From a virus: a stretch of 34,233 bases of DNA. Of this stretch, positions 2,584 through 34,233 are shown piece after piece; the first letter of the stretch is position 1; each line of letters begins with the position of its first letter. Both the position numbers and the translations under genes were made by a program. The notes beneath the pieces are model-generated. The model worked only from the letters and a program-made list of their open reading frames with translations. It did not search any database and was not told where the DNA came from. Where the stretch lies: positions 1-34,233 of IMG/VR virus record IMGVR_UViG_3300025151_000010. One strand, 5' to 3'.

Positions 2584-3071
2584 AAAAAAACCAGCGCACC
2601 GAGGACGGCATTCATTGGCATCTTAGAGTAATCGATTTCCATCTCTAATGTGTCGGCGTATGAAGCCACTTCGTACTTGCCGAATTGCTCGGCAACAATT
2701 GGGCGATAAAACACCCTCATCATCTTGTCCCAGTCGGCTTCTTTGCCTTGGTAGGTTTCGATGTCGACAAATTCCCCGAATGTCATAGAATCCAGGTTGG
2801 GTAAAAAGCCGAGTTCTAAGCCGTTCAAATTAACCCGTTCGATAAACTCATGCTCCTCGACATTGATAACGCTTCTAAGACGTGTTAAAATCGTTCTACG
2901 GCTAAGTTCATTCATTTGTCGTATGTCGTGTCCCTTAAGATTGCAAAAAACTTGAATCAAAAGTTCCTCGTAACGGGCATCTTCGAGTTCCTCGGGAATG
3001 TCCTTGAATCGAAGATATTGTTCCAGGGTAATGTCCTGGAGGCTTGTAGGTATGTCAATAGTAAGTTTCAT
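2397..3071 (-). CDS. tail assembly chaperone-like protein, zero-frame product (224 aa)
   Basis: Start placed at ATG 3071 (MKLTIDIPTS), directly after the conserved CGTTATAATAGT motif. The track start at 3095 translates that motif. The gene contains the T9 slippery run and an overlapping -1 ORF, which is the gpG/gpGT arrangement. Confidence 0.55.
   Translation of the reverse strand: MKLTIDIPTSLQDITLEQYLRFKDIPEELEDARYEELLIQVFCNLKGHDIRQMNELSRRTILTRLRSVINVEEHEFIERVNLNGLELGFLPNLDSMTFGEFVDIETYQGKEADWDKMMRVFYRPIVAEQFGKYEVASYADTLEMEIDYSKMPMNAVLGALVFFCQLGNELLNHMMNSLEEETKKTLATNQTSQESGGGTERYLTSLTEMYLALDKLQNSLCINA
2582..2590 (-). other. T9 homopolymer (U UUU UUU slippery heptamer in frame) - candidate programmed -1 frameshift or transcriptional slippage site
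   Basis: Minus-strand codons read GGT GCG CTG GTT TTT TTT TGC. Slipping back one nt gives TTG CCA GTT AGG..., which is the 2338..2583 frame. Confidence 0.55.
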
Positions 3072-3103
3072 ACTATTATAACGCCCAAAAGCCAAAGTGT
3101 AGT
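3069..3103 (-). promoter_or_regulatory. late-type motif copy L1: ACTAC-N15-CGTTATAATAGT-ATG
   Basis: Minus strand reads ACTACACTTTGGCTTTTGGGCGTTATAATAGTATG. The block CGTTATARTAnTATG is shared with 25559, 29152 and 30115 and ends in the start codon. Confidence 0.5.
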
Positions 3104-3107
3104 AAAC

Positions 3108-3133
3108 AAAAAAACCCCAGGCGATGCCCAGGG
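3108..3133 (-). terminator. rho-independent terminator
   Basis: Minus strand reads CCCTGGGC-ATC-GCCTGGGG (two G-U pairs that form only in the minus-strand RNA) followed by T7. It lies just downstream of the stop at 3142. Confidence 0.7.
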
Positions 3134-3141
3134 TTTGTGTT

Positions 3142-6217: not shown

Positions 6218-7390
6218 TTATCGAATATGGTATACGCCGTAGTTGGGATTTGATTTCGTCATATAAACCGAATAGCGTAGGGCATCGATAAGGTGGTTGA
6301 AGGCATCTACGGGAGTGTTTAAGGTTTGCCCGTTTCGGTCTTGCTTCCATTTGTAGTTCCTCATTTCCTTTATGCCATTGTTCGAGCCTGGCGTCCAAAA
6401 TAATTTGTGCCTTCTTAGAATATCAATTCCAGCGTTAACCGAATCCTTGCCTTTTGATGCTGGGCGAATCTTGAATCCCCACCGCTTTAGTTCCTCAATT
6501 GATTTCGGTTCTGCCGAATCGGCATAAATGATTTGACCTTGTATGCCCATGTCCTTAAGCCGTGAGGCGATGTCTGAGTTCGTCATTCCTATTTCGTAGA
6601 GTAGTTCCTCGAAATACAAATTGTCGCCCTTAGAATACACCCCAACCAATGCAGTCGGGTCGTTGCTAAATCCCCAGTCCAATCCGTATGCCAGGAATTC
6701 GGCATCGTTGGGAATGTTGCTGGTTTGAAAAGTGAATATGACTGCCCTGGATTGTGCCCGTTCTCCAAGCCCGTAAATCTTCCAATAAACCTCGTCAGTT
6801 TGTTTAAGTTTTTCGATTTCCTGGCGTAACGATTCATCAAGGAAGGGATTGTCCAGGTAAGTAGTTATATCGAATCTACAATCTTCCCTGGGTATTACCT
6901 TATCATAAATCCAGTGGAATTCTTCCGACGGGTTGAAGTCCATTATTACCTTCTCGGTAGTACGGATATTCAATTGAAAGAAATCCTCGTAGGTTAATTC
7001 ATTGGCCTCGTTGATGAATACCAAATCCCTCTTACGCCCCCGTATCTTTTGGGGCTGGTCAAGGGAAATAAATTCAACCGTATTTCCAAAGAGTTCGTAT
7101 TCGTGGCTTGATTTGTTATGAGCGTCGGGAAAGTACAGACCTTTTTCAGTCAAGATGTTTACGAAGTCCCTCATTACCGAAGCACGAAGTGAAGGGAAAG
7201 TCTTACGGCATATTGTAACCGTTTTCCCCTGGTTGTTATGCCTTAAGGTGTACGAGAAAATAAGCCACAAAAGAATGTTGTAGGTTTTACCCGAACGAGT
7301 ACCCCCTTGTTGTACTACATACCTCTCCTCGCTTTGTTCCAGGTATTCAAATACAACATTTGACTTGAATGTTAATTCGTTTCCAATCAT
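6218..7390 (-). CDS. terL: terminase large subunit (390 aa, short PBSX/Terminase_3-like type)
   Basis: Walker A GGTRSGKT is present, followed by VFINEANE (Walker B-like). The C-terminal nuclease half has GLDWGFSNDPTA, IYADSAEP and DAFNHLIDALRY. There is an ATGA overlap with terS. Confidence 0.9.
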   Translation of the reverse strand: MIGNELTFKSNVVFEYLEQSEERYVVQQGGTRSGKTYNILLWLIFSYTLRHNNQGKTVTICRKTFPSLRASVMRDFVNILTEKGLYFPDAHNKSSHEYELFGNTVEFISLDQPQKIRGRKRDLVFINEANELTYEDFFQLNIRTTEKVIMDFNPSEEFHWIYDKVIPREDCRFDITTYLDNPFLDESLRQEIEKLKQTDEVYWKIYGLGERAQSRAVIFTFQTSNIPNDAEFLAYGLDWGFSNDPTALVGVYSKGDNLYFEELLYEIGMTNSDIASRLKDMGIQGQIIYADSAEPKSIEELKRWGFKIRPASKGKDSVNAGIDILRRHKLFWTPGSNNGIKEMRNYKWKQDRNGQTLNTPVDAFNHLIDALRYSVYMTKSNPNYGVYHIR

Positions 7391-7743
7391 TCATCTTTTC
7401 GCACTACCTCAACATTGACCTTCAATGGCATATTGTCTTGTCCCGTTATCTCCTGGCGTTCGACATACCCTCGGTGTTTGCCCTGGGTTTTAAGGGCGAA
7501 TATAATAGCCGTCATATTGCCCCCGTCAATACCTTGCATAAGTTTACCCTCAATGTAATCCAAGCGCATTTCTTTGATGTTGTCTACTTCCTTTGCAAAG
7601 TCGGGGTCATTACTTAACCAATCGTAATAAGTTGTCCTACCAATACCCACCTTTTTACACGAAGCCGTTACATTGCTTAAGGTCTTTTGGAGGGCATCAA
7701 GCATTGCTTTTTTATGGTGTTCGGTTTTGTTCGGTTTTGGCAT
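7387..7743 (-). CDS. terS: terminase small subunit (118 aa)
   Basis: N-terminal HTH (SCKKVGIGRTTYYDWLSNDPDFAKEV) is followed by a helical region (GNMTAIIFALKTQGKHRGY). It sits directly upstream of terL and is coupled to it. Confidence 0.75.
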   Translation of the reverse strand: MPKPNKTEHHKKAMLDALQKTLSNVTASCKKVGIGRTTYYDWLSNDPDFAKEVDNIKEMRLDYIEGKLMQGIDGGNMTAIIFALKTQGKHRGYVERQEITGQDNMPLKVNVEVVRKDE

Positions 7744-8567
7744 TACTTAATCAGTTGTAAAAATTCATTGCGAGCCTTCTCGTCTTCCTTAAAATATCCA
7801 ACCATCTTAGATGTGGTGGTGTAGGTGTCGTGCTTCTTTACCCCTCGCATACTCATACACATATGTTGTGCCTTTAATACAACGGCTACTCCCTTAGGCT
7901 GTAGTTCCTCCATCAATCGGTCTGCAATTTGCATTGTAATCCTTTCCTGGTTTTGTAGCCTACGAGAATAGGTTTCAAGGGTACGGGCTAACTTGCTCAA
8001 TCCAACGATTTTTCCATCGGGTATGTAGGCAATATGTCCCACCCCAAAGAAAGGGGCTATATGATGTTCGCAAAGGCTATGAAACGGAATGTTGGTTTGT
8101 ACTATCATCTCGTCCATTCCTTCCGAATCGAATACCGTGAAATTGAATTCGGGAGGCGATAAGAATTCACGCATAAATTTGAGGTAGCGTTTTGGTGTTT
8201 CCTTTAACCCTTCTCGTGTTGGGTCTTCGCCCAGGTATTGGAAGATTCGCACCATGTTATCTTCTACCTCCCCGTCTTCTTCTTTTTCCCAGGGGAATAC
8301 CAACCACTCGCCCTGGAGTTCCTTGCGTTTATCGAATAACGCTACGAATGGTTTTTCGGGAAATTCGGCTTTCCACTTAACTTCGGTTGCTCCCGAATCA
8401 ATTAGGTCGTCAATAATAACATCGGCAACGTGAGGATTCATAACGGCTTTTCCAGTTAGTGCGGCTGGGACGGCTCCTCCCCTGGGCACACCGTAGTATG
8501 TTACGTCCTTTGGCAAGGCATTAACTCTCTCGTAAACTTGTTCCCAGGTGATGTAGGTTTTTTTCAT
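7743..8567 (-). CDS. folE: fusion protein: N-terminal Gpt-like mini phosphoribosyltransferase domain + C-terminal GTP cyclohydrolase I (FolE), 274 aa
   Basis: The N-terminal part has YITWEQV, GVPRGGAVPAALTG, VIIDDLIDSGAT (PRPP loop) and EWLVFPWE, which match the blocks of xanthine-guanine PRTase. The C-terminal part has EGLKETPKRY, CEHHIAPFFGVGHIAYIP, GLSKLAR, QNQERIT and HMCMSMRGV, which are FolE signatures. Confidence 0.8.
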   Translation of the reverse strand: MKKTYITWEQVYERVNALPKDVTYYGVPRGGAVPAALTGKAVMNPHVADVIIDDLIDSGATEVKWKAEFPEKPFVALFDKRKELQGEWLVFPWEKEEDGEVEDNMVRIFQYLGEDPTREGLKETPKRYLKFMREFLSPPEFNFTVFDSEGMDEMIVQTNIPFHSLCEHHIAPFFGVGHIAYIPDGKIVGLSKLARTLETYSRRLQNQERITMQIADRLMEELQPKGVAVVLKAQHMCMSMRGVKKHDTYTTTSKMVGYFKEDEKARNEFLQLIK

Positions 8568-9296
8568 CTAAACTCCAGTTTTTTTATTCCAAATATCAAT
8601 GTGCAAACGGCTGGTGTATTTTAGTCGTTCACGTTTACAAATTTCTGCAACGGCTGGTGCGCTTTCCGATAGAAGATTCTTGTCCTCTCCACTCGGCATA
8701 AGCCATACTTGTTCCCTTTTAACGATAGGCAAGTAATCCACTCGTATTTCTTCCCATTCACTTTCAGTAGTTACAACGAATTTGAACATAGCATTCATTC
8801 GTGATACCGCTTTAATGACTTCGGGCTGGTAGGTTTGATTTCTTGTATTGCCCGAATTGGATAGTTTGGGACTAACATTCCATTGGTCGACTTCCCTAAA
8901 AAGGGCATCGCTTGGAAGTATCGTTCCGTTGGTTTCGATTTCAACGAATACCTCGGGGTTTATGAATTCACGAATGTATTGAATGAAATCTACCACCGCA
9001 TCTTGTTGCATTGTAGGTTCGCCCCCCGTAATAATTACATTCGCCCCGTCGTTGATTGCTTCCACGCATTCATCGTCAAGGATTTCTTCTACGGCTTTCG
9101 CCTGGGCATTCATCCATACTTCCAGGGTATCGCATCGGAAGGTTGCCCCGTTCATTAATTCCCCAGTAAACTGTGTACCCATACCTCCACACATAAGGTT
9201 ACAACCCCCCAGGCGCACAAATACGGCTGGAAATCCTGCGGTCTTACCCTCCCCTTGTATTGAGTAGAATACTTCGCTAATCGCTAACTTTCTCAT
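8568..9296 (-). CDS. queE: 7-carboxy-7-deazaguanine (CDG) synthase, radical-SAM QueE (242 aa)
   Basis: N-terminus EVFYSIQGEGKTAGFPAVFVRLGGCNLMC...FRCDT matches QueE, and IITGGEPT is also present. The Cys spacing reads CX3CX18C. Confidence 0.8.
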   Translation of the reverse strand: MRKLAISEVFYSIQGEGKTAGFPAVFVRLGGCNLMCGGMGTQFTGELMNGATFRCDTLEVWMNAQAKAVEEILDDECVEAINDGANVIITGGEPTMQQDAVVDFIQYIREFINPEVFVEIETNGTILPSDALFREVDQWNVSPKLSNSGNTRNQTYQPEVIKAVSRMNAMFKFVVTTESEWEEIRVDYLPIVKREQVWLMPSGEDKNLLSESAPAVAEICKRERLKYTSRLHIDIWNKKTGV

Positions 9297-9672
9297 AGGC
9301 TACTTTGCTGGATTTTGTTTCGGCCAGCGTTATCTTAGTTATGTTTATATGCTCACGAATGAGGTCGAATAGGTGCATAGCCATGTTCTCAGCACTCGTT
9401 TGAAATGGTAATGGAATGAACGGTTCATTGAGGTCGATAAGCGCTTGACACAACGGGTCTTCATCGTGTAGCAAAAAGTAGTGGTCAAACTGCTTAACAA
9501 TCGGTTCAACTATTTCATCGATGTCGCTAAACAAGACCGTCAAATCCCCGTCCATCTCCAAAGAAAATTCACACTCAACATCGTAAGTGTGCCCGTGTAT
9601 TCTACCGCACTTTACCCCCGCTTCTTTATTGCGGTGTGCGGCGTAAAAATGGTATACTTTAATTACTTTCAT
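9277..9672 (-). CDS. queD: 6-carboxy-5,6,7,8-tetrahydropterin synthase QueD (131 aa)
   Basis: Contains FYAAHR, CGRIHGHTYDVE, FDHYFLL, TSAENMA and LAETKSSKV, which are canonical QueD/PTPS T-fold blocks. Confidence 0.8.
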   Translation of the reverse strand: MKVIKVYHFYAAHRNKEAGVKCGRIHGHTYDVECEFSLEMDGDLTVLFSDIDEIVEPIVKQFDHYFLLHDEDPLCQALIDLNEPFIPLPFQTSAENMAMHLFDLIREHINITKITLAETKSSKVAYEKVSD

Positions 9673-10589
9673 TATTCTTGATTTCCGCCGTAGTAGGCAT
9701 ATTGTTTTTTCAATAGCATTCCAGCAAGTCCGTACTTGCCGTAATAGTCCAGGCGTTTAGGTGTAACCTCCATTTCAAAGTGCTGAAGAATGTTTTCCAC
9801 TTTCGTCCTGGTAAGCCCTTCAAGTTTGGCTTTATTAATGTCCCGATTCTTTACCTTGGTGGTTTTATCCCCGTGGTTGAATACCAGGCTACCCCACCGA
9901 TTAACTTGTTGCCAGGAAGTAGAATCCGCACTACTACAAAACGAGCATTGTTTTAGTAGGTTGTTTTCGGTACAACCCAGCAAGTGAATATCAATCGACG
10001 GCTTCTTATTCTTAATGTAGTTAGCCAGGCGAACAACATCTTCCTTGTAGGTCTTGCGATTTGTGATTCTTAATTCGGGTACGGATACGGCAATGTAATC
10101 GCTGAATTCAATTAATCGGTCAAGCCCTTTCTTTCCGTCCTCTTTATGAAAGACGTTTATTTGTCTTAGGTTCGTCATTTCACGCATTCGTTTGCGGAAT
10201 TCCCAGGCTTTTTCTACACCGAGGATTTTTTGACAGTCTACCTCAACGATTGTACCAGTATACCCCACCTCCTCGGTAAAGCCTACGAGTTCCTCTAACC
10301 ACCTTGTAACAAACTTTTCATCTCGCTCCCCAGCGTGTGCCCCAAACATCAAAGTAAATAACCCCGAATCCATTATTGTGTGCCTATGTGCGCTCGTCAA
10401 ATAACCAGGGCTTTGTGTGGTACAAGATTTCATCTTTAATGGCTTGATACCGAATTTGTGGGCGATGAAGGGAAACACGGTAAAGAGGGAGTACTTGATG
10501 TCCCCTATGTCGGTCAACGCCATCGCAAAATCCTGGTTCTCCAGTCCTGCGAAATGCACCTTGATGTTTTGTTGGTCGTTTACTATCAT
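9672..10589 (-). CDS. dpdA: DpdA-like DNA guanine transglycosylase (TGT superfamily), 305 aa
   Basis: IMDSGLFTLMFG matches the TGT DSGGFQ block, IHLLGCTENNLL matches LMGVG, and SSADSTSWQQ matches the catalytic-Asp block. There is no C-terminal tRNA-binding or Zn segment. The gene is embedded in the folE-queDE block. Confidence 0.65.
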   Translation of the reverse strand: MIVNDQQNIKVHFAGLENQDFAMALTDIGDIKYSLFTVFPFIAHKFGIKPLKMKSCTTQSPGYLTSAHRHTIMDSGLFTLMFGAHAGERDEKFVTRWLEELVGFTEEVGYTGTIVEVDCQKILGVEKAWEFRKRMREMTNLRQINVFHKEDGKKGLDRLIEFSDYIAVSVPELRITNRKTYKEDVVRLANYIKNKKPSIDIHLLGCTENNLLKQCSFCSSADSTSWQQVNRWGSLVFNHGDKTTKVKNRDINKAKLEGLTRTKVENILQHFEMEVTPKRLDYYGKYGLAGMLLKKQYAYYGGNQE

Positions 10590-10912: not shown

Positions 10913-11490
10913 TTTCCTAAGTAATCTTTAAGTAGTTTCCACACCGCCGCTTCATAGGATTCGGCTACGTGCAAAAGCCCTTCTTTTACCACTTCCAATT
11001 CTTCTTCCGTATAAGTGAGTACCAGGTTAGTCGCTGGTTCGATATCCTTAGCATCGTCCTCCTGGGGTTCATCAAAAAAGCCATCGAGGTCAACATCTTG
11101 CTCGGGCATCCATACATCTACCCCCATTTCTTTCAAAAAGCCAGGGTCGTATTCGTTAGCCAGGAGTTCCCAGTCGTATTCCCCCGAATGCACATTGTCC
11201 TTAATTACGAATCGGCGCATAGCCTTAGTATCTGCTACATTGCCAGGGACAATCATAACGGGTACCTCTTTCCACCCTAAATGTTGGTAGGCTCGGAAGC
11301 GTTGATTTCCCCCCTGGGCAACCATGTCCTCATCTACAATAATTGGACGGGCTTCACTCATCCATGAATCCTCCTCAATGCTTTTGACCAAGTTGGCGAA
11401 TTTCTCGTCCCGTATAACCCTGGGGTTGTTTGGGTTTGCTTTGACCTTTGAAATAGGTACGTATTCGACCTTAATTTTCGGCTTCTTCAT
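10909..11490 (-). CDS. ParB/Srx-like N-terminal domain protein (193 aa) with acidic C-terminal half
   Basis: VEYVPISKVKANPNNPRVIRD and GGNQRFRAY correspond to ParB box-type motifs (NPR, GxxRxxA). It is translationally coupled to the deazaguanine genes. Confidence 0.65.
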   Translation of the reverse strand: MKKPKIKVEYVPISKVKANPNNPRVIRDEKFANLVKSIEEDSWMSEARPIIVDEDMVAQGGNQRFRAYQHLGWKEVPVMIVPGNVADTKAMRRFVIKDNVHSGEYDWELLANEYDPGFLKEMGVDVWMPEQDVDLDGFFDEPQEDDAKDIEPATNLVLTYTEEELEVVKEGLLHVAESYEAAVWKLLKDYLGK

Positions 11491-11905
11491 ATGTATTGTA
11501 GACTTGATTTATTTCGGCAATGAATTCCTTCCAACGAACGGGCGCACAAGTACACGGTCTTGTATAGGGGTGTTGAAATAGCCTGGCGTGTAGCGTTGCA
11601 ATGAGGTCAAGTTCACTCTTTTGAAGTACCTCGCTATCCTTGTCCCGAAAGACAGTCCAGTTATTGTATTCATTTTCGGTCATACATAAGGGTTGTTTGT
11701 AAGGGAACAAGGCGTTCAGTTTTTCCTTGCGTTCATCACAACCGCAATCTTCCCCCGCAATAAATTTGACCAGGCTTTTAATCCCAGTCGCTTCCGTAAT
11801 TTTCTCCACGGTATCCCCTAATCCTTTCGCCTTGGGTTTTGCGCTTTTCTTCCTTGTACTGCTGGTATTCTTCTTCGCAGTTGTTTTTGATTTTTTCTCT
11901 GACAT
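11471..11905 (-). CDS. hypothetical Lys-rich / Cys-containing protein (144 aa)
   Basis: Basic N-terminus followed by GLGDTVEKITEATGIKSLVKFIAGEDCGCDERKEKLN. The first 128 nt overlap the sigma ORF out of frame. Confidence 0.6.
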   Translation of the reverse strand: MSEKKSKTTAKKNTSSTRKKSAKPKAKGLGDTVEKITEATGIKSLVKFIAGEDCGCDERKEKLNALFPYKQPLCMTENEYNNWTVFRDKDSEVLQKSELDLIATLHARLFQHPYTRPCTCAPVRWKEFIAEINQVYNTYEEAEN

Positions 11906-12362
11906 TTTTTAAGGTAATAAAGATTGATTTAGCACTAATGTTTGTTGCCCTTGCCAGGCTTCGTATCGAATGACCCTCCTCCAAATACACCTTCAAGAGT
12001 TTACGGTCATACCAATGTTGTTCTTCTAATTGCTTTTCTACGGCATTTAGAAGCGTTTTGAAGGCGTTTTCGTAATCGTTCTGTATACTGGCATCAAAAC
12101 TAAACGAAACGTCGTCTAAGGGCTTCTCTTTAGATTTGCGATGTAATGATGTAACCATATTCCCCAGGGCAGTAAAGATGTAGGCCGTGTTTAACTGGCC
12201 GTTGTATGTTAGTCGATTCAAATCGCCTTCCCTTTCCTGGATTGTATGCAATTTCATATACAAGTCTTGAACGATGTCCTCTTCAAAGCCCGACGGCGCA
12301 CCTAAGTAGACTGCAATCGCAATCCATTCGTCGTGCCGTTGTGCTATGTCGGTTAAGGTCAT
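11778..12362 (-). CDS. sigma-70 family, ECF-like RNA polymerase sigma factor (194 aa)
   Basis: The region-2-like block is EEDIVQDLYMKLH. The region-4 HTH is HSIRSLARATNISAKSIFITLKNVREKIK. The size is typical of group-4 sigmas. Confidence 0.7.
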   Translation of the reverse strand: MTLTDIAQRHDEWIAIAVYLGAPSGFEEDIVQDLYMKLHTIQEREGDLNRLTYNGQLNTAYIFTALGNMVTSLHRKSKEKPLDDVSFSFDASIQNDYENAFKTLLNAVEKQLEEQHWYDRKLLKVYLEEGHSIRSLARATNISAKSIFITLKNVREKIKNNCEEEYQQYKEEKRKTQGERIRGYRGENYGSDWD

Positions 12363-12380: not shown

Positions 12381-12411
12381 CAAATATAAAACAAAATCCT
12401 AACTTGTCAAA
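12381..12411 (-). promoter_or_regulatory. canonical Bacteroidota-type promoter upstream of the sigma gene
   Basis: Minus strand reads TTTG-(19 nt)-TATATTTG, an exact match to -33 TTTG / -7 TAnnTTTG. It continues GAAAAGACAAATACTTTGA then ATG. Confidence 0.6.
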
Positions 12412-12749
12412 TACCACTGAATCTCCCTGGCGAATTCTAAGAAGCCACCGACCACCACATACCGATAGCCCTGGCTTTCAACCGCTTCCTCAAATGCCTT
12501 TTGATGTTTGGTCTGCCGTCCTTTGCCGTGTTTCATTTCAATACACAAGCCGTGGTACTCTCCCCTGGGAACAAGCAAAATCAAATCACTTACCCCAGGT
12601 AATAAGCCTTCACGCTTCATTCTAATGGCCGTTCCCCGATTTCTCATACCTCCATTCGGTACGCTAAAAAATACCCCAGCATAGCCAGGGTATTGAAGCC
12701 GAAACCACTTAACACATTCGGCTTGTAGGGCACTTTCAAGTTGCTTCAT
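12399..12749 (-). CDS. VRR-NUC domain nuclease (116 aa)
   Basis: PD-(D/E)xK core: PGVSDLILLV ... LCIEMKHGKGRQT. Size and layout are typical of VRR-NUC. Confidence 0.8.
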   Translation of the reverse strand: MKQLESALQAECVKWFRLQYPGYAGVFFSVPNGGMRNRGTAIRMKREGLLPGVSDLILLVPRGEYHGLCIEMKHGKGRQTKHQKAFEEAVESQGYRYVVVGGFLEFAREIQWYLTS

Positions 12750-22169: not shown

Positions 22170-22493
22170 TTAATTTAAGTATGCTTTTCCACTTTCAGCC
22201 GAGTTAAATAAAACGGTCAGTTGGTTGGCTGAATCGTACCGTACCTCCGTTATCAATATGTTTCCGCCGTCGTCCACTATGGCTACGGCTGGGTGTTTAT
22301 TCAAGTTGTGGGTAATAACCCATTGGTCAGTTGCCGTACTTTGGGTGTGCGTATAATGCTTGTCCCCCGATGCCACGGCAACACGGCTCACAGTAACCGA
22401 CATAGGTGCCGAATTGGTAAGGCTTACCGAATTCGAACCCCCTTGTTGGATACTGACTGAATTGGGGTCTTGCTGGTTTACGTTTACACTCAT
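22170..22493 (-). CDS. small beta-rich virion/fibre-associated protein (107 aa)
   Basis: HYTHTQSTATDQWVITHNLNKHPAVAIVDDGGN...VRYDSANQLTVLF is a pattern I recognise from small phage fibre-associated proteins. It is coupled to the upstream gene. Confidence 0.5.
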   Translation of the reverse strand: MSVNVNQQDPNSVSIQQGGSNSVSLTNSAPMSVTVSRVAVASGDKHYTHTQSTATDQWVITHNLNKHPAVAIVDDGGNILITEVRYDSANQLTVLFNSAESGKAYLN

Positions 22494-22852
22494 TATTCAG
22501 TAACGTCATCTTTTACAATAAATAAGCCTCCAAGCCAGGTACTAACCTCGCTTGTGCTTGTATGTGTTGCTTGGACATCGTAGGTATATGTTCCCCCTTT
22601 TAAGGTCATATCCGATGCCCCTTTTTTCATCAAAAGGTTGCCCGAAGAATCCTTCGTAAAATCCGCATCGTTAAAGGTTAGCAATACAGTCGACCCCGTA
22701 CTCTTTTTTCGTACCTGGGCTTTGAATGTATACGCCGTCAAATCGATTGCGTTGTCATCTGCATCCGTCCAGTCCATGTCCAGTTTGAAGGTGTCGTGGC
22801 GCATACAAGTGATGTCGAGCGTTTCCTTTATAATGAGATTAACCTTTGCCAT
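22493..22852 (-). CDS. hypothetical beta-sandwich-like virion protein (119 aa)
   Basis: ORF in the structural block. No motif I can name. Confidence 0.5.
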   Translation of the reverse strand: MAKVNLIIKETLDITCMRHDTFKLDMDWTDADDNAIDLTAYTFKAQVRKKSTGSTVLLTFNDADFTKDSSGNLLMKKGASDMTLKGGTYTYDVQATHTSTSEVSTWLGGLFIVKDDVTE

Positions 22853-25226: not shown

Positions 25227-25561
25227 AGCGTCATAAATTTATTGTCAAAGCCTAACTCGTGTTCGTACTTGTCCTTCAGCACCGAGTACGCATCTAATTC
25301 CGTTTGCGAAGTGGCGTAAACCTTGCCTCGGTAAACTGGAATTTCGTTCGAATCTCGTAAGGTAATTGCGTACCATTTTCCCTCCTCAAAGTGGTAATCG
25401 AAAGCCAGGCTTCGATATGAATTGGAAGTGGTTACAACGACCTCGGGTGTTGAAGTTTCTTTACTGTAATCATCACGAATAGTCAATTCCAGGTCGCCCG
25501 TATATTTACGTGTTGCAACCTTTAGTGAATGTTCCGACTGATTAGGATTAACGATGTTCAT
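25223..25561 (-). CDS. hypothetical head-module protein (112 aa)
   Basis: Start placed at MNIVNPNQ (25561), immediately after the CGTTATAGTAAT motif. It has an ATGA overlap with the portal. Confidence 0.6.
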   Translation of the reverse strand: MNIVNPNQSEHSLKVATRKYTGDLELTIRDDYSKETSTPEVVVTTSNSYRSLAFDYHFEEGKWYAITLRDSNEIPVYRGKVYATSQTELDAYSVLKDKYEHELGFDNKFMTL

Positions 25562-25593
25562 ATTACTATAACGCAAGAATCCCTTTTTGTTAC
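25559..25593 (-). promoter_or_regulatory. late-type motif copy L2: GTAAC-N15-CGTTATAGTAAT-ATG
   Basis: Minus strand reads GTAACAAAAAGGGATTCTTGCGTTATAGTAATATG, directly after a terminator. Confidence 0.5.
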
Positions 25594-25594
25594 C

Positions 25595-25619
25595 AAAAAA
25601 AAAGAGGGCAATGCCCTCT
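25595..25619 (-). terminator. rho-independent terminator closing the second small-gene cassette
   Basis: Minus strand reads AGAGGGC-ATT-GCCCTCT followed by T9. Confidence 0.75.
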
Positions 25620-25622
25620 CTC

Positions 25623-26570: not shown

Positions 26571-26834
26571 TTACTCTGCTACGTCGTAGATTCTTGACAT
26601 TAGGTTTAACCACTCTGCGTACAATAGTGGTTCGTCGTTTACCACTTTTACAATCTTCCACTTAAGGTCATCGTAAATAACCCCGTCGTAAAGGGCTGAA
26701 AGTTCGTTACATACTGTCCAGTAGTCAAATTCAAACTTTTCTCTGTTAGTGAAGAAGTAAGCATCTAAGTTGCGTACCAATTTCATGTCGTCCATTAGGA
26801 AAGTTTCGTGGCGGTTGAATTTCAAGTATCCCAT
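26571..26834 (-). CDS. hypothetical protein (87 aa), first gene after early promoter P5
   Basis: Start MGYLKFNRHE at 26834 follows the leader AACCAAAAAAAGAGAAAAA. The track start at 26867 lies inside the promoter. Confidence 0.55.
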   Translation of the reverse strand: MGYLKFNRHETFLMDDMKLVRNLDAYFFTNREKFEFDYWTVCNELSALYDGVIYDDLKWKIVKVVNDEPLLYAEWLNLMSRIYDVAE

Positions 26835-26863
26835 TTTTTCTCTTTTTTTGGTTGTTTGATAGT

Positions 26864-26898
26864 CCAAACTACGGAACTATATTTTAGTTCTACAACAC
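26864..26898 (-). promoter_or_regulatory. conserved early promoter element P5
   Basis: Minus strand reads GTGTTGTAGAACTAAAATATAGTTCCGTAGTTTGG. Confidence 0.55.
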
Positions 26899-28443: not shown

Positions 28444-29154
28444 CTATTTATTAAATAATCGGTTATAAACTCGGCTTTCAGTCGTGTTGTTTTGGACTTT
28501 AGCCTTAAAGAATTCCTTACGTTGTGCTACTGCTTCAACGCTATGCTTCAAAGGTTGAGCCGCTGGTTCCTCGGCCAGTTTAGACTTAAGTTCCTCAACT
28601 TCAGCCGATAGGGCTACTCGCTGGGCTTCTACTTCTGCTAACTGCTTAGACCACTCGTCCTTTTCCGCCTGGAATTTAACTTCCATTTCGCTAATCTGCT
28701 TTTCGAATTGCATTTCAACCGACTTGCTTTCGGTTTGAATTACACGCTTCGGCTCGGCCGTTGCTGGTGCTGATTCTACTTGCATCTTTTCTTCGTCATC
28801 GTATCCAGCCTCCACTTCGCCTTCTGCTGGGGCTTCTGCTGGGGCTGGTGCTTCTTCTTCCTCACTTGGTTGCTCCTCGTATGCTTCGATAACGCCCTGG
28901 TCATTTACCATCATCACGTTGCCGTCTTCCATAGCGTAGTGCCCCTCAGGTGCTGGAATTCTCTCGCCATCTTCAGTCAATACAAACACCGCATCGCCTG
29001 GGGCAAATGAATCGCTTTCGAATACGACGTCCCCTTCTGCTTGTTTGCGTTGTTCGAATTTAACCTCAACAACGGGAGTTTCTTGTACTTGCTCGGCTTC
29101 TTTTTCCATGCCGAGGTAGGTCATGATTTTACCTAATGTAGTTTCTGCATTCAT
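28444..29154 (-). CDS. scaffolding protein (236 aa)
   Basis: Highly acidic (EEQPSEEEEAPAPAEAPAEGEVEAGYDDEE) with a C-terminal coiled coil. It lies between the protease and the MCP. Confidence 0.7.
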   Translation of the reverse strand: MNAETTLGKIMTYLGMEKEAEQVQETPVVEVKFEQRKQAEGDVVFESDSFAPGDAVFVLTEDGERIPAPEGHYAMEDGNVMMVNDQGVIEAYEEQPSEEEEAPAPAEAPAEGEVEAGYDDEEKMQVESAPATAEPKRVIQTESKSVEMQFEKQISEMEVKFQAEKDEWSKQLAEVEAQRVALSAEVEELKSKLAEEPAAQPLKHSVEAVAQRKEFFKAKVQNNTTESRVYNRLFNK

Positions 29155-29186
29155 AGTATTATAACGCTTATAAATTATTGTGTTCC
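29152..29186 (-). promoter_or_regulatory. late-type motif copy L3: GGAAC-N15-CGTTATAATACT-ATG
   Basis: Minus strand reads GGAACACAATAATTTATAAGCGTTATAATACTATG. Confidence 0.5.
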
Positions 29187-29190
29187 GTTT

Positions 29191-30117
29191 TTATTCGAGT
29201 TCCCCTAATTCGCGGAGTTTATTTCTTGACCAGCCCAGCGCCGACTTGCCACCCCACAACAAAAACGAAATAGTACCGCACGCGCTGGTGTCGTTCGGGT
29301 CATAGTATTCCTCGGCTCGGCTGAGGTACGAATACATTCGTTTAATTGTTTGAAGGCTTAATGGTTTACCCTGGGCAATTTGTTGCGCCCTAACCTTACC
29401 AGTTTGTGTCGCACATTTATTACCATTCTTTTCGTTTAGTTCGATACCTCGCTTGGCGTTATTACGAATTCCCTGGCCGTAATCGGAATACGATTCCATC
29501 TCCATTCGTTTGCCTTTTTTATAACGAGCATCGGGGCGTATAATGGCGCGAATCTCACTAAGGATTAGTTCGGCTTCTTCTTCATCGATAGAAGCCCTTA
29601 GTTTCATTTTATCGGCGAAATAACCTTCAATACTAAAGCCCTGGACTTTGCCCGTTTTAACGTAATTCTCCCACACGTCATTGTTTTCGACTTTCATCGA
29701 AATCATCCACGTGCCTACGGGAAGGCTCATATTGTATAGCGCACTCTTGTCTTTTTCCACGTCCTCAATAATCCAGGATTCAACCACGGACAAACCATTG
29801 ATTGAAACCTCGTGTTCGAGAGTGGCTTTGTTTTGGTGGCCACGCTGGAAGAATAATTCGTTAGCGCGTCGAATGGTTTCTTTGCTGAAATACACATAGA
29901 ATTCTTCGGTGCCGTTTCTTCGGTAGATTGGCTTATTAGGAATAAGTGCCGCACCCATTAGAATTCGTTTCTCTTTATCGTGAACGGCAAATTCTTGTCG
30001 TCCCTCGTCCTTCAATGCGATGAAGTTTTCTTCTATTGCTGGTTCGGAAACAATGCTAATCGCATCAATGCCATTCGCAAGGCTTTCCTCGTCCAAAATA
30101 AGTTCGATGATTCTCAT
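29191..30117 (-). CDS. XkdF-like prohead serine protease domain protein with C-terminal extra domain (308 aa)
   Basis: GIDAISIVSEPAIEENFIALK...ILMGAALIPNKPIYR...ATLEHEVSINGLSVVESWIIED resembles the XkdF/S78-like family. It lies upstream of the scaffold and MCP genes. Confidence 0.65.
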   Translation of the reverse strand: MRIIELILDEESLANGIDAISIVSEPAIEENFIALKDEGRQEFAVHDKEKRILMGAALIPNKPIYRRNGTEEFYVYFSKETIRRANELFFQRGHQNKATLEHEVSINGLSVVESWIIEDVEKDKSALYNMSLPVGTWMISMKVENNDVWENYVKTGKVQGFSIEGYFADKMKLRASIDEEEAELILSEIRAIIRPDARYKKGKRMEMESYSDYGQGIRNNAKRGIELNEKNGNKCATQTGKVRAQQIAQGKPLSLQTIKRMYSYLSRAEEYYDPNDTSACGTISFLLWGGKSALGWSRNKLRELGELE

Positions 30118-30149
30118 AGTACTATAACGATTGATTAACCAAATGTTGC
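30115..30149 (-). promoter_or_regulatory. late-type motif copy L4: GCAAC-N15-CGTTATAGTACT-ATG
   Basis: Minus strand reads GCAACATTTGGTTAATCAATCGTTATAGTACTATG. It overlaps the 3' end of the upstream gene. Confidence 0.5.
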
Positions 30150-32090: not shown

Positions 32091-34233
32091 TTACGGTTCT
32101 TCAGTTCCGCCACCGCCCGTGTCTACCTCGGATTCGTATGCGCTTGCTATAATGTTAGAAACCACCACAAAAGGTACTGACGGGGCATTAGGTTGTTGAG
32201 TGGTTCTCGTTCCGTTTACTGTATTGATGTTCCCCAGGGAAGTACCTTGCGACCCCGTACCCACAAATGTTATTCCGTTGTTATTGGCTGACGGCGTACC
32301 CACATTCCAGTTGTTGCCCGTGCTTGATGCCGAGTAAATGTTTATGTCGGGGTATGTCATTAAAGTAACCTTCGCTTCTTCCTTCAACATATCGTATTGA
32401 ATACCGTCGATTTTATAGTAGTAACCCGATATGTTTATTGTTTCGCTTAAGTCCAGGTCAAGCCACTGCCCTACTGGAAGCCGTAGGGTAAGTTCTACGA
32501 GCCTGGATTGTGAAGAATAGATGCGAGATATATAACCGAGCCAAAACTCGCTTAGAATCGTTTTTTCAGGGGCATCGCCACTAAGGGTAGATTCAAGACT
32601 AAACGCCAGGCTTCGAGAAGTCGACGCAGTTGGATAGGCATTGTACGGGCTTATGATTGGGAAGGAGGTTTTTAATGAGCCACCGAAATACCAATCGTCC
32701 GAAGATTTCAGCCCGTTGTAATAGAATAAAAGGAAGTTAATTTGAATCGGATTTAAGCCGTTATCCAATGCCTGGAATAATTGAATATCTGTGGTCGATG
32801 CAACACTCCCGTACTGGTTTATGTCCCGAATCAAAGTAGGTGGGAATACTTGGAAAGGGGATTGCACCTTCAAATCCTTGCTACCAAAATCTACCGAGGT
32901 GCTACTCTCCGATGACCCAAATTCACGAACGGCGTTTTGGGTAAATGCTTGGTTTTGGAAATCCGTTGATTTTTTATGCTTGAACGAAAGCCTTTTGGCT
33001 ACGTCAACCTTCTTGTGTACCACGGAGGAAATATCGGCGTACTTGCTCCAGTCTTTTGTTGCCCCGTTATCGTACCAATCCTTAAGCGGTTCTACATCGA
33101 TTCGCGAATCACTAATCGGAAGTAAAATACAGTTGAATGTTTGTAATACCCCGTTCAAGAATTCAGCCACTTTCACTTTAGGCATTAACTCGCCAAAATT
33201 GATATTCGTATTGCTACTTGTATTCGGTCCCGATGTACATTCGAATGTTATATTGCTAATCTGCGCTCCCGATTGCGTAGAAGAATAACGCATTGTAATC
33301 AAATCCCCAGCGGCGAGAGTAACCGCAAAAGAATCCGTCTTATTTCCCGTAGTGGTATGCGTATTTCCATTGGCTACGCTTGAACCATTCTTGTATAGTT
33401 TTGAGGCGATTGTTCCACTTTGGGTAGTGGCTACATAGTACGAGTTTGTGAATGAATATAACCCAGCCGTAGGCGCAGTAAAAGTACCCGAGGTATAGTT
33501 CATTGCATTGACCGTATCTAAGGCCTCAGCCGTGTAGGTCATTGTAACATAAAAGTTACTCATACCAAAGTTGTAGGTCGTCGCCCTGGACACTTCAAAT
33601 TTAGGTACGACGGTGGCTACATTTAATGTACCAGCGTAAGCCGAGGGGCACACATAAAGGTCATCAAGGTGGGAATTCGTATAGAAACTTCCCTGGCTAT
33701 CATATCCGTAATGTGTGAAAATCGCCTTTACCATTTCGGTCAATAAAAGGGCTGGTTTCAAATCGGAAATGGTAACGCCCCCCGTACTTGTCGCTATGTT
33801 TTTTGAGATAGAAGTACCAGCCGATGAATAGTTAAAGGCTTCGCCCCAGGCAATCACGGGGTACATAACCTTACCACTAAGCAAGTTTCCGTTCCAGGAA
33901 TTCGTTATGTTTTGGGAAGTACGGGCATGAGTATAGTCGTCCCATTGAATCGCCTGGAGAGTATCTTCTCCCATAGACGAGGACAGTTTTTTGTTGTCCC
34001 CGTAAAACACGATTGAATAGTCCTGGGGTTGCCCGTCCTTGAATGTTACGCTATTTAATTCTACTACGCCGTTGAATACTTCGATGCCGTCTATTTCGAT
34101 AACCGCTGGGGTCTTGTTGTGGGCATCGTATCCACCTACAACATCAACATTGTAATAGTGTTTGAAAGCCTTATTATTTCGGGTTGATGCTGGTACCTTA
34201 AACGATTGGGAATAATCGCTGACAACCGATTTA
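32091..34233 (-). CDS. 3' part (plus junction overlap) of the 745-aa tail-tip/baseplate-like structural protein gene; the true start is at 194 across the circular junction
   Basis: The frame stays open upstream of the track start (GTG at 34010) to the window edge and joins in frame to 194..1. The protein is Ser/Thr/Asn-rich and typical of tail tip or fibre proteins. Confidence 0.8.
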   Translation of the reverse strand, partial: KSVVSDYSQSFKVPASTRNNKAFKHYYNVDVVGGYDAHNKTPAVIEIDGIEVFNGVVELNSVTFKDGQPQDYSIVFYGDNKKLSSSMGEDTLQAIQWDDYTHARTSQNITNSWNGNLLSGKVMYPVIAWGEAFNYSSAGTSISKNIATSTGGVTISDLKPALLLTEMVKAIFTHYGYDSQGSFYTNSHLDDLYVCPSAYAGTLNVATVVPKFEVSRATTYNFGMSNFYVTMTYTAEALDTVNAMNYTSGTFTAPTAGLYSFTNSYYVATTQSGTIASKLYKNGSSVANGNTHTTTGNKTDSFAVTLAAGDLITMRYSSTQSGAQISNITFECTSGPNTSSNTNINFGELMPKVKVAEFLNGVLQTFNCILLPISDSRIDVEPLKDWYDNGATKDWSKYADISSVVHKKVDVAKRLSFKHKKSTDFQNQAFTQNAVREFGSSESSTSVDFGSKDLKVQSPFQVFPPTLIRDINQYGSVASTTDIQLFQALDNGLNPIQINFLLFYYNGLKSSDDWYFGGSLKTSFPIISPYNAYPTASTSRSLAFSLESTLSGDAPEKTILSEFWLGYISRIYSSQSRLVELTLRLPVGQWLDLDLSETINISGYYYKIDGIQYDMLKEEAKVTLMTYPDINIYSASSTGNNWNVGTPSANNNGITFVGTGSQGTSLGNINTVNGTRTTQQPNAPSVPFVVVSNIIASAYESEVDTGGGGTEEP
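34135..34233. repeat. 99-bp terminal direct repeat, copy 2
   Basis: Identical to 1..99. Confidence 0.95.

Follow-up and report, generated by a model that had tools for sequence, protein, structure and literature searches.

Four copies of one promoter-like block, each ending in the start codon of a gene, are found in the window, which is the whole 34,233-nt stretch of viral DNA that was analysed. These four sites are probably late promoters that depend on a sigma factor of the phage itself, and they would give leaderless mRNAs. The comparison of related sequences indicates that the promoter-on-ATG design is family-wide in this Flavobacteria-type phage group, including a cultured relative. The morphogenesis messages of these phages are probably leaderless, which is uncommon in this bacterial group. 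To our knowledge, almost nothing is known about the timing of gene expression in phages of Flavobacteriia and other Bacteroidota. These bacteria are major degraders in oceans and lakes; the promoters of Bacteroidota hosts are unusual, and their translation does without Shine-Dalgarno sequences.

The block CGTTATARTAnTATG has four exact copies in the window, all on the minus strand, which is also the coding strand. By base composition, about 0.0009 exact copies are expected by chance on both strands. The four sites of the original prediction are all present and are listed below together with their genes, and they are referred to as candidate class A promoters.

Positions 3069..3103, minus strand: site 1, candidate class A promoter ACTAC-N15-CGTTATAATAGTATG, with ACTAC at 3103-3099, a 15-nt spacer, the -10 block CGTTATAATAGT at 3083-3072 and ATG at 3071-3069; the gene encodes 224 aa and is the first in the tail/fibre operon.
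Positions 25559..25593, minus strand: site 2, candidate class A promoter GTAAC-N15-CGTTATAGTAATATG, with GTAAC at 25593-25589, a 15-nt spacer, CGTTATAGTAAT at 25573-25562 and ATG at 25561-25559; the gene encodes 112 aa and precedes the portal gene.
Positions 29152..29186, minus strand: site 3, candidate class A promoter GGAAC-N15-CGTTATAATACTATG, with GGAAC at 29186-29182, a 15-nt spacer, CGTTATAATACT at 29166-29155 and ATG at 29154-29152; the gene encodes a scaffold-like protein of 236 aa, and a major-capsid-like gene lies 6 nt downstream.
Positions 30115..30149, minus strand: site 4, candidate class A promoter GCAAC-N15-CGTTATAGTACTATG, with GCAAC at 30149-30145, a 15-nt spacer, CGTTATAGTACT at 30129-30118 and ATG at 30117-30115; the gene encodes the 308-aa prohead protease (Peptidase_S78_2).

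When up to two mismatches were allowed, no further match to the block was found on either strand of the window. Similarly, when the 12-mers upstream of 238 candidate ATG starts were compared, the only clique of similar sequences consisted of these four sites. A motif scan of the genome, proposed with the original prediction as a check that could count against it, found no equally good match inside genes. The predicted pentamers GGAAC, GTAAC, GCAAC and ACTAC are seen as -35-like elements exactly 15 nt upstream of CGTT at 4/4 sites. Three of the four contain AAC and site 1 has TAC; a 608-aa gene lying upstream contains the GCAAC of site 4 in its 3' end. The -10 element CGTT is present at all four sites, with its C exactly 12 nt before the A of ATG, so that the A stands 8 nt after CGTT.

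In ECF promoters, the -10 element is followed at about 6-8 nt by the transcription start; the spacer that separates it from the -35 element usually has some 16-18 nt, a figure that varies with the motif boundaries chosen. The AAC-to-CGTT spacer lies at the short edge of the ECF range, with exactly 15 nt in the window and 15 or 16 nt in relatives; spacers of 15-18 nt were used in BioProspector searches for ECF motifs (PMC7776599). Given the 12-nt distance from the C of CGTT to the ATG, an ECF-type -10 geometry would place the transcription start at the A or within 1-2 nt of it. From this geometry we infer a start at the A of ATG itself. Start sites usually prefer a pyrimidine followed by a purine, and T at -1 with A at +1 agrees with this. 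Within the genome, positions -8 to -3 (ATARTA) are conserved above what is normal for a plain discriminator, which leaves room for an additional function.

The motif ATGs open real ORFs of 224, 112, 236 and 308 aa (sites 1-4). At sites 3 and 4 no possible start lies between the preceding stop codon and the motif ATG. At sites 1 and 2 the ORF finder had placed TTG starts at 3095 and 25576; both lie inside the motif and are artefacts, as had been supposed. The TTG start at 26867, at a separate class B site, is likewise an artefact. Alignments to PHROG profiles begin at residue 1 of the 224-aa protein and at residue 14 of the protease, which corresponds to profile position 13, and the same ATG is used as the start by orthologs. 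The largest ORFs of the window are structural. As to the gene labels given earlier, the protease was borne out by Peptidase_S78_2, and the label of scaffold for the site 3 gene is plausible from its match to the C-terminal part of a PHROG whose N-terminal part matches the protease. The labels of a chaperone-like gene (site 1) and a head gene (site 2) found no support, the PHROGs concerned being of unknown function.

The conservation of the block was followed in related phages. A megablast of 4 kb around the sites against the phage collection found nothing, and a protein-level search of the collection found only the Nonlabens phages P12024S/L. The exact block of the window had no match in 80 relatives selected by portal; orthology alignment of portal-selected relatives revealed it as clade-specific variants. 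A scan of the collection for the block plus an extra G gave mostly single chance matches on unrelated contigs, and the true relatives were sorted by tblastn. The family set comprises 38 distinct upstream regions at the position orthologous to site 2, picked by orthology alone and aligned on the ATG only, with portals 36-62% identical. In this set T-10 is found in 36/38, T-9 in 34/38, G-11 in 27/38, T-1 in 35/38 and A-30 in 32/38 regions. GTT at -11..-9 is present in 27/38 regions versus 4/31 portal-start controls. AAC starts at -31 or -30 in 28 of the 38 regions, and it starts anywhere in -33..-29 in 32/38 versus 6/31 portal-start control upstreams. These orthology-selected regions bear out the predicted architecture, with AAC, a spacer of 15-16 nt and (C)GTT kept and phase-locked to the ATG.

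The family -10 core is (C/G)GTT, with TATT instead in some clades; the cores by clade are CGTTATA, CGTTTTATA, GGTTAAC, TATTGTAT and CGTTAATA. Within each clade, a -10 variant of its own recurs at 2-6 genes, always on the coding strand. ATG ends every site in the window and every site identified in relatives, in a search that was mostly anchored on ATG, and only a scan free of ATG tests the coupling independently. In that scan the coupling was found at 6/6 cores in P12024S, 3/3 in L017 and 4/6 in the window, with 0 on the opposite strands; the two uncoupled window cores are intragenic and have no AAC. In the cultured Nonlabens phage P12024S, the ATG is exactly 12 nt from the C in 6/6 CGTTA[AC]TA cores. 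Individual sites are also kept. The site 1 block is found in L131, L132 and L213, and the site 1 orthologs of L107, L109 and L110 have the identical block together with the TAC-type -35. Scaffold orthologs in several clades each carry the block of their own clade. The promoter of the protease ortholog is present in L029, L071, L115, L117, L126, L133 and others, and it is absent in other clades.

The candidate reader of these promoters is encoded in the same genome, and no phage RNA polymerase is encoded there.

Positions 11778..12362, minus strand: divergent ECF-type sigma factor of 194 aa with two domains (sigma2 and sigma4), assigned by TIGR02937, Pfam matches within its family and fold.

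The original prediction of an ECF-like sigma at this position is upheld by agreement between TIGR02937, Pfam matches of the homolog family and the predicted fold, and by sequence and modelled structure the protein is a divergent ECF-type sigma. TIGR02937 matches it with E = 3.4e-7, aligning residues 26-160 with positions 26-163 of the 165 in the profile, at a score of 30 bits, which is under the curated cut-off of 42.9. The same model matches 8/8 family members (best 2.3e-11), and the Bacteroidota ECF model NF058625 (NCBIfam) matches the window sigma at 5.3e-7. Pfam Sigma70_r2 is found in 6/8 homologs (best 8.5e-6), and Sigma70_r4_2 and Sigma70_ECF match more distant family members, with Sigma70_r4_2 on family member P0100 reaching 28.8 bits, above the cut-off of 25.7. 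The window sigma itself has no Pfam or PHROG match and no significant match in a sequence search of the PDB, and the profile of eight homologs gave a best sigma match of E = 0.29 against PDB sequences.

The AlphaFold model of the sigma, built from an alignment of eight sequences, is weak (pLDDT 59), and its fold matches are supporting evidence only; the top Foldseek matches of this model are almost all ECF sigmas. The modelled C-terminal domain superposes on region 4 of E. coli sigmaE, on sigma4 of Mtb SigD and on the -35-binding domain of 3hug, with TM 0.75-0.84 and rmsd 1.2-2.0 A. In the model, a low-confidence linker (residues 78-95) connects two helical blocks, and regions 1.1 and 3 are absent. 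ECF sigmas have two domains only and about 160-220 aa; the members of this family have 150-240 aa. At E <= 0.001, 1,197 representative clusters belong to the family. Among the larger ORFs next to the sigma gene, which encode a VRR-NUC protein and a ParB_N protein, none was recognised as anti-sigma-like. A cognate anti-sigma next door is typical of ECF sigmas and is not universal.

The window sigma is most likely the reader of the class A promoters, judged by the sequence data together. Its gene is found in every clade whose locus reaches far enough, and the VRR-NUC / sigma / ParB / TerL synteny is kept across relatives, including P12024S gp33. This constancy has to be weighed against the idea that the sites are genuine ECF-type leaderless promoters read by a host ECF sigma, while the phage sigma does something else, such as reading other promoters or acting as a decoy or an anti-sigma target. 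Flavobacteria encode many ECF sigmas. The SM6 motif of Flavobacterium psychrophilum has a CGT -10 box, so that host promoters of the ECF type share this element with the window (PMC9723704). In addition, an identical block persists with phage sigmas that are 34-53% identical to that of the window, as would be expected with a conserved host factor. The three relatives with an identical site 1 block and TAC-type -35 have sigmas 48-53% identical, and in L135 and L213 the sigma is only 34% identical, yet the block is identical. Other sigmas at about 30-34% identity accompany GGTTAAC or TATTGTAT. Co-variation of the sigma and the -10 element is not claimed here, as the same block is found with sigmas 34-100% identical and different blocks at about 30%. 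However, the clades do differ in the -10 core, which a co-evolving phage factor explains more easily, and apart from a host-type sigmaA motif no recurrent intergenic motif was found in the window that could be another target of the phage sigma. Reading by a host ECF sigma is thus considered unlikely, and the phage sigma is the reader that we favour.

The surroundings of two of the sites also speak for promoters. Sites 1 and 2 lie directly after intrinsic terminators.

Positions 3112..3136, minus strand: terminator-like hairpin with an 11-pair stem followed by the T-run TTTTGTTT, immediately upstream of site 1.
Positions 25595..25620, minus strand: terminator made up of the hairpin AGAGGGC-ATT-GCCCTCT and T9, just before site 2.

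About 0.2 terminator-like sites are expected by chance in the region of the first, and the order of terminator and then promoter at site 2 is kept in relatives. With transcription ending there, the genes of sites 1 and 2 require a promoter of their own. No terminator stands upstream of site 3 or site 4, and a read-through RNA containing the block must therefore exist. The existence of such RNA, and the conservation of -8 to -3 beyond that of a discriminator, would suit a different reading, in which a phage protein binds the block at the RNA level, over the start codon, as a translational operator or site of processing, with transcripts coming from further upstream. The original prediction had named a translational operator as its alternative. 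Folding found no common RNA structure across the four sites. The first ~20 nt of the predicted 5' ends are unpaired in 4/4 minimum-free-energy folds, with z-scores of -0.1 to +1.5 against shuffles, and the sites have no match to an Rfam family; the idea of a structured RNA was rejected on these grounds. The -35-type element conserved at a fixed distance of 15-16 nt and the terminators directly before sites 1 and 2 also argue against an RNA element. In the relatives L201 and L115, the -35/-10 block is intact and detached from the ATG, with a leader present; such cases are rare, and a block that is kept despite a leader is more readily explained as a DNA promoter than as an RNA operator. The RNA-level reading is judged to be very unlikely.

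A second promoter class in the window resembles the housekeeping promoters of the host.

Positions 12381..12410, minus strand: Bacteroidota sigmaA-type promoter TTG-N19-TATATTTG, preceding the sigma gene and leaving it a leader of about 19 nt.

This motif (TTG...TAnnTTTG) is the only other recurrent intergenic motif; it is found before the sigma gene and at other intergenic sites with normal leaders. It follows the Bacteroidota sigmaA consensus of -33 TTTG and -7 TAnnTTTG, in which the box lies at -12..-5 and TTTG about 19-21 nt upstream (PMC9723704). The TAnnTTTG box is absent from the four class A sites of the window. TATAAT or TATAGT does lie inside the class A block, and a generic sigma-70 scan flags site 2 as GTAACA-17-TATAGT, which might suggest a housekeeping -10 element read by the primary sigma, with transcription starting a few nt past the ATG and the true start codon further downstream. 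That scan, however, found no excess of promoters over shuffles, and sigmaA of the host phylum uses TAnnTTTG and not TATAAT (PMC9723704). Relatives keep GTT at -11..-9 but not TATAAT, two examples being GGTTAACCTATT and CGTTAATATAGT, and the protein N-termini align from the motif ATG. We give almost no credence to a housekeeping promoter here. Equally improbable is that the block is no promoter at all, being either a DNA operator for a dimeric regulator over the start codon or a repeat left by recombination at module boundaries: site 4 has a perfect 10-bp palindrome, ATAGTACTAT, but sites 1-3 have only an imperfect dyad and the variants of relatives have none, and the element is confined to one strand, phased to the ATG and conserved at orthologous sites across portal identities of 36-62%, so that the palindrome was rejected as the basis of the motif.

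Under the preferred reading of phage-sigma promoters, the host core RNA polymerase loaded with the phage ECF-type sigma would read the class A sites. The sigma4 domain would recognise the AAC-type -35 element and sigma2 the CGTT-type -10 element 15 nt away. The 12 nt before the ATG are taken up by the -10 block, and no Shine-Dalgarno sequence or leader would be available. The morphogenesis operons would be made as leaderless mRNAs and translated from a 5'-terminal AUG. These would be the tail/fibre operon from site 1, the pre-portal gene with the portal and downstream genes from site 2, the scaffold and capsid from site 3 and the protease from site 4. A cascade of two steps is proposed. Host sigmaA would drive the early and middle genes, including the sigma gene, from sigmaA-type promoters, and the phage sigma would then drive the virion genes. 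The sigmaA-type promoter before the sigma gene may be the entry point of this cascade. The choice of the phage sigma over a host ECF sigma, the late timing of the class A genes and their leaderless translation are all derived from the arrangement of sequence elements and are put forward as presumptive. Leaderless mRNAs make up 5.5% in one mapped Flavobacterium species (PMC9723704); because of this low share, efficient translation of leaderless messages by the host enters the model as an assumption.

A broader proposal, which we regard as rather doubtful, is that the ATG phase-locking is more than compact genome layout, being a design to which a large family of Bacteroidota phages is bound, and gives the late proteins a leaderless channel of translation apart from host mRNAs. 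If true, this channel might, for example, use 70S-type initiation on a 5'-AUG, independent of the A-rich, Kozak-like leaders of the host, and might keep working while the host is shut off or defends itself. The bases at -8 to -3 would then have a double role, for the sigma and for the initiating ribosome or polymerase. More immediately, a two-tier model, which extends across a large metagenomic family, can be annotated from sequence, with sigmaA promoters and leaders for early genes versus ATG-fused phage-sigma promoters for virion genes. In practice, the start-codon calls at the three TTG codons (3095, 25576 and 26867) are corrected and late operons are defined, and compact orthogonal sigma/promoter pairs could become available for Bacteroidota genetics. 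The question is also raised of how efficiently Bacteroidota ribosomes work on leaderless mRNAs. The cultured Nonlabens phage P12024S has the same architecture at at least six genes, which makes the prediction directly testable.

Temporal control of late genes by phage sigmas is known from gp28 and gp33/34 of Bacillus subtilis phage SPO1 and from gp55 of T4. Those sigmas are not of the ECF type, and their late mRNAs have leaders and Shine-Dalgarno sequences. The cI mRNA made from PRM of lambda is leaderless and is a single message, not a regulon. Leaderless late transcripts were reportedly described in Thermus phage P23-45 by Berdygulova et al. in 2011.

The phage phiEco32 has a distant sigma homolog of its own, gp36, with middle and late promoters (PMC12276001). 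Like the window, it has a small two-domain phage sigma with an N-terminal domain like sigma2 and a C-terminal domain like sigma4, a phage-specific motif centred on the -10 region with an additional -35 contact, and a host core RNA polymerase redirected from sigma70-dependent early genes to phage middle and late genes; in the window, these features are predicted. The phiEco32 consensus is AATGTA centred at -11.5, whereas the window has AAC-N15-CGTT. phiEco32 further needs the co-factor gp79 and infects E. coli, not a member of the Bacteroidota, and, unlike in the window, no fusion of its promoters to start codons is described.

Cellular ECF (group IV) promoters resemble the candidate promoters of the window in the AAC -35 element, the CGT -10 element and, less clearly, their fixed spacing. 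They also share with the predicted start sites a pyrimidine at -1 and a purine at +1, the latter an A if the transcript is leaderless; the leaderless ECF promoters known from Actinobacteria show a preference for a pyrimidine at -1 followed by A at +1 (PMC7776599). In contrast to cellular systems, the sigma of the window is encoded by the phage and lacks an evident anti-sigma partner, the spacer is 15-16 nt, and essentially the whole putative regulon, not a minority, is phase-locked to the ATG. The leaderless ECF promoters of Actinobacteria also differ in their setting, since in the host phylum only about 5.5% of transcripts are leaderless, a figure from one mapped Flavobacterium species.

The placing of the -10 region adjacent to ORFs in Deinococcus-Thermus is similar to the window in that the -10 element stands a few bp before the start codon and leaderless mRNAs are made systematically (PMC12340547). 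The distance between the -10 element and the start codon matters in that mode as well (PMC12340547). It relies on RpoD, the housekeeping sigma, with a TATAAT-like motif that depends little on a -35 element, and it is genome-wide in a bacterial phylum (PMC12340547), whereas the window would have a late phage regulon under an alternative sigma. Phage sigma cascades and promoter-ATG fusions are already known, and the class A sites would be a phage ECF-type variant of them.

The block, CGTTATARTAnTATG, carries a -10-type core and ends in a start codon, and a -35-like pentamer lies upstream of it. The four sites of the original prediction were recovered by motif scan, with the pentamer exactly 15 nt before CGTT in each case. 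They are termed predicted class A promoters, and like every gene in the window they lie on the minus strand:

3103..3069, minus strand: site 1, ACTAC-N15-CGTTATAATAGTATG
25593..25559, minus strand: site 2, GTAAC-N15-CGTTATAGTAATATG
29186..29152, minus strand: site 3, GGAAC-N15-CGTTATAATACTATG
30149..30115, minus strand: site 4, GCAAC-N15-CGTTATAGTACTATG

When the two strands of the window were scanned with up to two mismatches allowed, these four matches were found and none beyond them. The chance expectation for the exact motif, from base composition, is ~0.0009. Among 238 ATGs with at least 50 codons following, sites 1-4 were the sole clique of similar upstream 12-mers. Their ATGs open real ORFs of 224, 112, 236, and 308 aa, respectively, and the ORF-finder TTG starts at 3095 and 25576 fall inside the motif, artefacts as had been proposed. 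With 15 nt, the spacer is among the shortest in the ECF range, positions -8..-3 are conserved above the need of a plain discriminator, and RNA folding leaves ~20 nt unpaired at the predicted mRNA 5' ends. A dyad operator was rejected, as the palindrome occurs at site 4 only. A weaker, leadered candidate for a fifth class-A-like site, CCAAC-N14-CGTTTACTTGAC, was seen at window ~22907-22853 (minus strand), in the 81-nt gap preceding gene 22493-22852 and ~35 nt before the ATG.

The window ends are identical over 99 nt (1-99 = 34135-34233). This indicates a complete, circularly assembled genome with a unit of 34,134 bp. Judged by gene content, the four predicted promoters are the heads of the morphogenesis operons. 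The 308-aa protein at site 4 was confirmed as a prohead protease by its Peptidase_S78_2 domain match. The 236-aa protein at site 3, labeled scaffold, can be called scaffold-like on the basis of the C-terminal part of the protease's PHROG: the N-terminal half of PHROG 24921 is matched by the protease and the C-terminal half by this next gene. The two (28444-30117, minus strand) are one fused protease-scaffold protein in other phages. Site 3 lies exactly at the split, where it would make expression of scaffold and capsid independent of the protease gene. The 112-aa gene of site 2 precedes the portal gene, and the 224-aa gene of site 1 is the first of a block that crosses the circular junction to a fibre-like protein:

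32091-34010, minus strand: C1q-domain ORF, 639 aa, reached by the site 1 operon across the junction

Hairpin-plus-T-run terminators lie a few nt upstream of sites 1 and 2, so transcription would need to restart there. Elsewhere the genome has genes for replication and for a 7-deazaguanine pathway, as well as TerL and the sigma, and neither a class A site nor a phage RNA polymerase was found there. Shine-Dalgarno sequences are generally absent from the window genes, and upstream regions are A-rich. The cluster at 7387-10589 (minus strand) resembles a 7-deazaguanine (preQ0-type) DNA-modification pathway and includes two small flanking ORFs; at its position, the related viral contigs L109 and L110 have a TAGT-family gene and an epimerase instead:

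9672-10589, minus strand: queuine tRNA-ribosyltransferase/DpdA-like protein
8568-9296, minus strand: QueE-like radical SAM protein
7743-8567, minus strand: GTP cyclohydrolase

The conservation of the promoter architecture was analyzed in 80 viral contigs with portals 40-62% identical to that of the window. The exact window block was absent from all 80 of these portal-selected contigs. When the upstream regions of the orthologous pre-portal gene were lined up by orthology, a common architecture was found throughout: terminator, (T/C)AAC element, 15-16-nt spacer, clade-specific core (CGTTATA, CGTTTTATA, GGTTAAC, TATTGTAT, or GTTTATAG), and ATG, the last 8 nt past the initial four core bases. A set of 38 distinct upstream sequences was then aligned solely on the ATG. 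The most informative positions were T-10 (36/38), T-9 (34/38), T-1 (35/38), A-30 (32/38), and G-11 (27/38), and AAC began at -31 or -30 in 28/38. AAC beginning anywhere in -33..-29 was present in 32/38, compared with 6/31 portal-start upstreams from the same genomes used as controls; for GTT at -11..-9, the counts were 27/38 and 4/31. Within a clade, the clade's own core recurs at 2-6 genes; every copy is on the coding strand and ends in the ATG of a real ORF. The contigs found by block scan are true relatives, in which the block stands upstream of the protease, 224-aa, or pre-portal gene. L107, L109, and L110, with sigmas 48-53% identical to that of the window, have an identical block at the site 1 ortholog. 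The -35 of site 1 (3099-3103) and of these orthologs is ACTAC or AGTAC, i.e., TAC for AAC. Its retention across phages with ~50% identical sigmas suggests a deliberately different promoter of the 224-aa gene, perhaps weaker or later.

The only cultured relatives found are the Nonlabens (Flavobacteriaceae) phages P12024S and P12024L, genus Inhavirus. The P12024S synteny of VRR-NUC, sigma (gp33), and TerL matches that of the window, and AAAACAA-N~15-CGTTA[AC]TAnnnn-ATG is present at gp01, gp05, gp08, gp41, gp44, and gp45. Coupling was measured by scanning for cores without requiring an ATG. In P12024S, the ATG stood exactly 12 nt from the C in 6/6 coding-strand CGTTA[AC]TA cores, versus 0/3 on the opposite strand. 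The related contig L017 gave 3/3 and the window 4/6, its two exceptions being intragenic and without AAC. Upstream of the scaffold gene in contigs L201 and L115, the -35 and -10 are kept with a leader between block and ATG, which indicates that the block is a DNA element able to function without the ATG. The leadered block, e.g., CGTTATAATACTAT, lies ~26-60 nt before the scaffold ATG in L201 and L115 (position 10038).

ORF 11778..12362 (minus strand, 194 aa) had been described as an ECF-like sigma. Searched alone, it gave no Pfam, PHROG, or PDB-sequence match. Against NCBIfam, it matched TIGR02937 (sigma70-ECF) end to end (E = 3.4e-7), as well as the Bacteroidota ECF models NF058625 and TIGR02985. 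NCBIfam ECF models were matched by 8/8 family members (best 2.3e-11), and Pfam Sigma70_r2 was found in 6/8 homologs. A family profile search returned 1,197 representative clusters (E <= 0.001), and among the more distant members were proteins with Sigma70_r4_2 (one above the Pfam cut-off), Sigma70_r2, and Sigma70_ECF. The best PDB matches of the AlphaFold model, itself weak (pLDDT 59), were nearly all ECF sigmas; the C-terminal domain superposed on region 4 of sigmaE, SigD, and SigL with TM 0.75-0.84. The NCBIfam, homolog, and fold matches support the assignment, and the predicted protein is a divergent two-domain ECF-type sigma.

Another motif, class B (TGTTGTA-nAAn-AAAAT...TAnnTTTGG), recurs in intergenic regions directly downstream of T-run terminators, with A-rich leaders of ~25 nt following it:

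26897, 16052, 6198, 4509, 3793 (5' coordinates of TGTTGTA), minus strand: class B copies

Apart from extra conserved bases, it resembles the sigmaA promoter type of Bacteroidota (-33 TTG / -7 TAnnTTTG), whose -7 box is TAnnTTTG (PMC9723704). One copy falls between the capsid and portal blocks of the structural module, and the TTG "start" of listed ORF 26571..26867 belongs to the motif. A perfect sigmaA-type promoter precedes the sigma gene, with a similar one at 15456-15426:

12381-12410, minus strand: TTG-N19-TATATTTG, ~19 nt before the sigma ATG

This suggests that the sigma is produced by the host holoenzyme. Class A and sigmaA-type motifs thus form two clearly distinct promoter classes in this genome. 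Downstream of TerL in L107 (sigma 53% identical), small genes are preceded by textbook Bacteroidota sigmaA promoters, TTTG-N19-21-TATCTTTG, at 11150-11207 and 12450-12509, in support of Bacteroidota as hosts of the whole phage group.

The best-supported reading of these sequences is a two-step cascade. Host sigmaA would transcribe the early and middle genes, including the sigma, and the class A promoters would then be used by core polymerase under the direction of the phage sigma. We infer that the phage sigma reads class A sites and that their expression is late. With CGTT at -12..-9, the A of the ATG would be +1 and T would be -1, and transcription would presumably start at that A. This geometry would fit the rule of a pyrimidine at -1 and a purine at +1 and, for leaderless ECF promoters, the enrichment of A at +1 (PMC7776599). 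Leaderless mRNAs were only 5.5% of transcripts in the one mapped Flavobacterium species (PMC9723704). Reading of class A sites by a host ECF sigma is less likely: it does not readily account for -10 cores that differ between clades or for the phage sigma gene in every clade examined; co-variation of sigma and -10 across relatives is not clean. The block as an RNA operator or processing site, including the translational operator first offered as an alternative, is disfavoured by the phased -35, by the position of sites after terminators, and by the leadered exceptions, as well as by the lack of a common fold among the sites by RNA folding and the lack of an Rfam match. A TATAAT-type housekeeping -10 fails, since it is not the type used in the host phylum (PMC9723704) and the relatives keep GTT, not TATAAT.

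Among characterized systems the closest is that of phiEco32, where the two-domain phage sigma gp36 serves middle/late promoters of its own; it differs in motif (AATGTA), host, need for gp79, and promoters not described as ATG-fused (PMC12276001). Fusion of promoter and ATG, with leaderless mRNAs as the product, is known for ECF promoters in Actinobacteria (PMC7776599) and for RpoD in Deinococcus-Thermus (PMC12340547). No earlier description was found in the literature on Inhavirus/P12024S and on leaderless or late genes of Bacteroidetes phages. With the parts known separately, the novelty lies in the combination: an entire, putatively late phage regulon with an ECF-type promoter phase-locked to the start codon. 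As predicted here, a large family of Bacteroidota phages shares this ATG-locked regulon. The components are familiar from the known systems, and the value lies in how systematic the coupling is, in the host phylum, and in the cultured test system.
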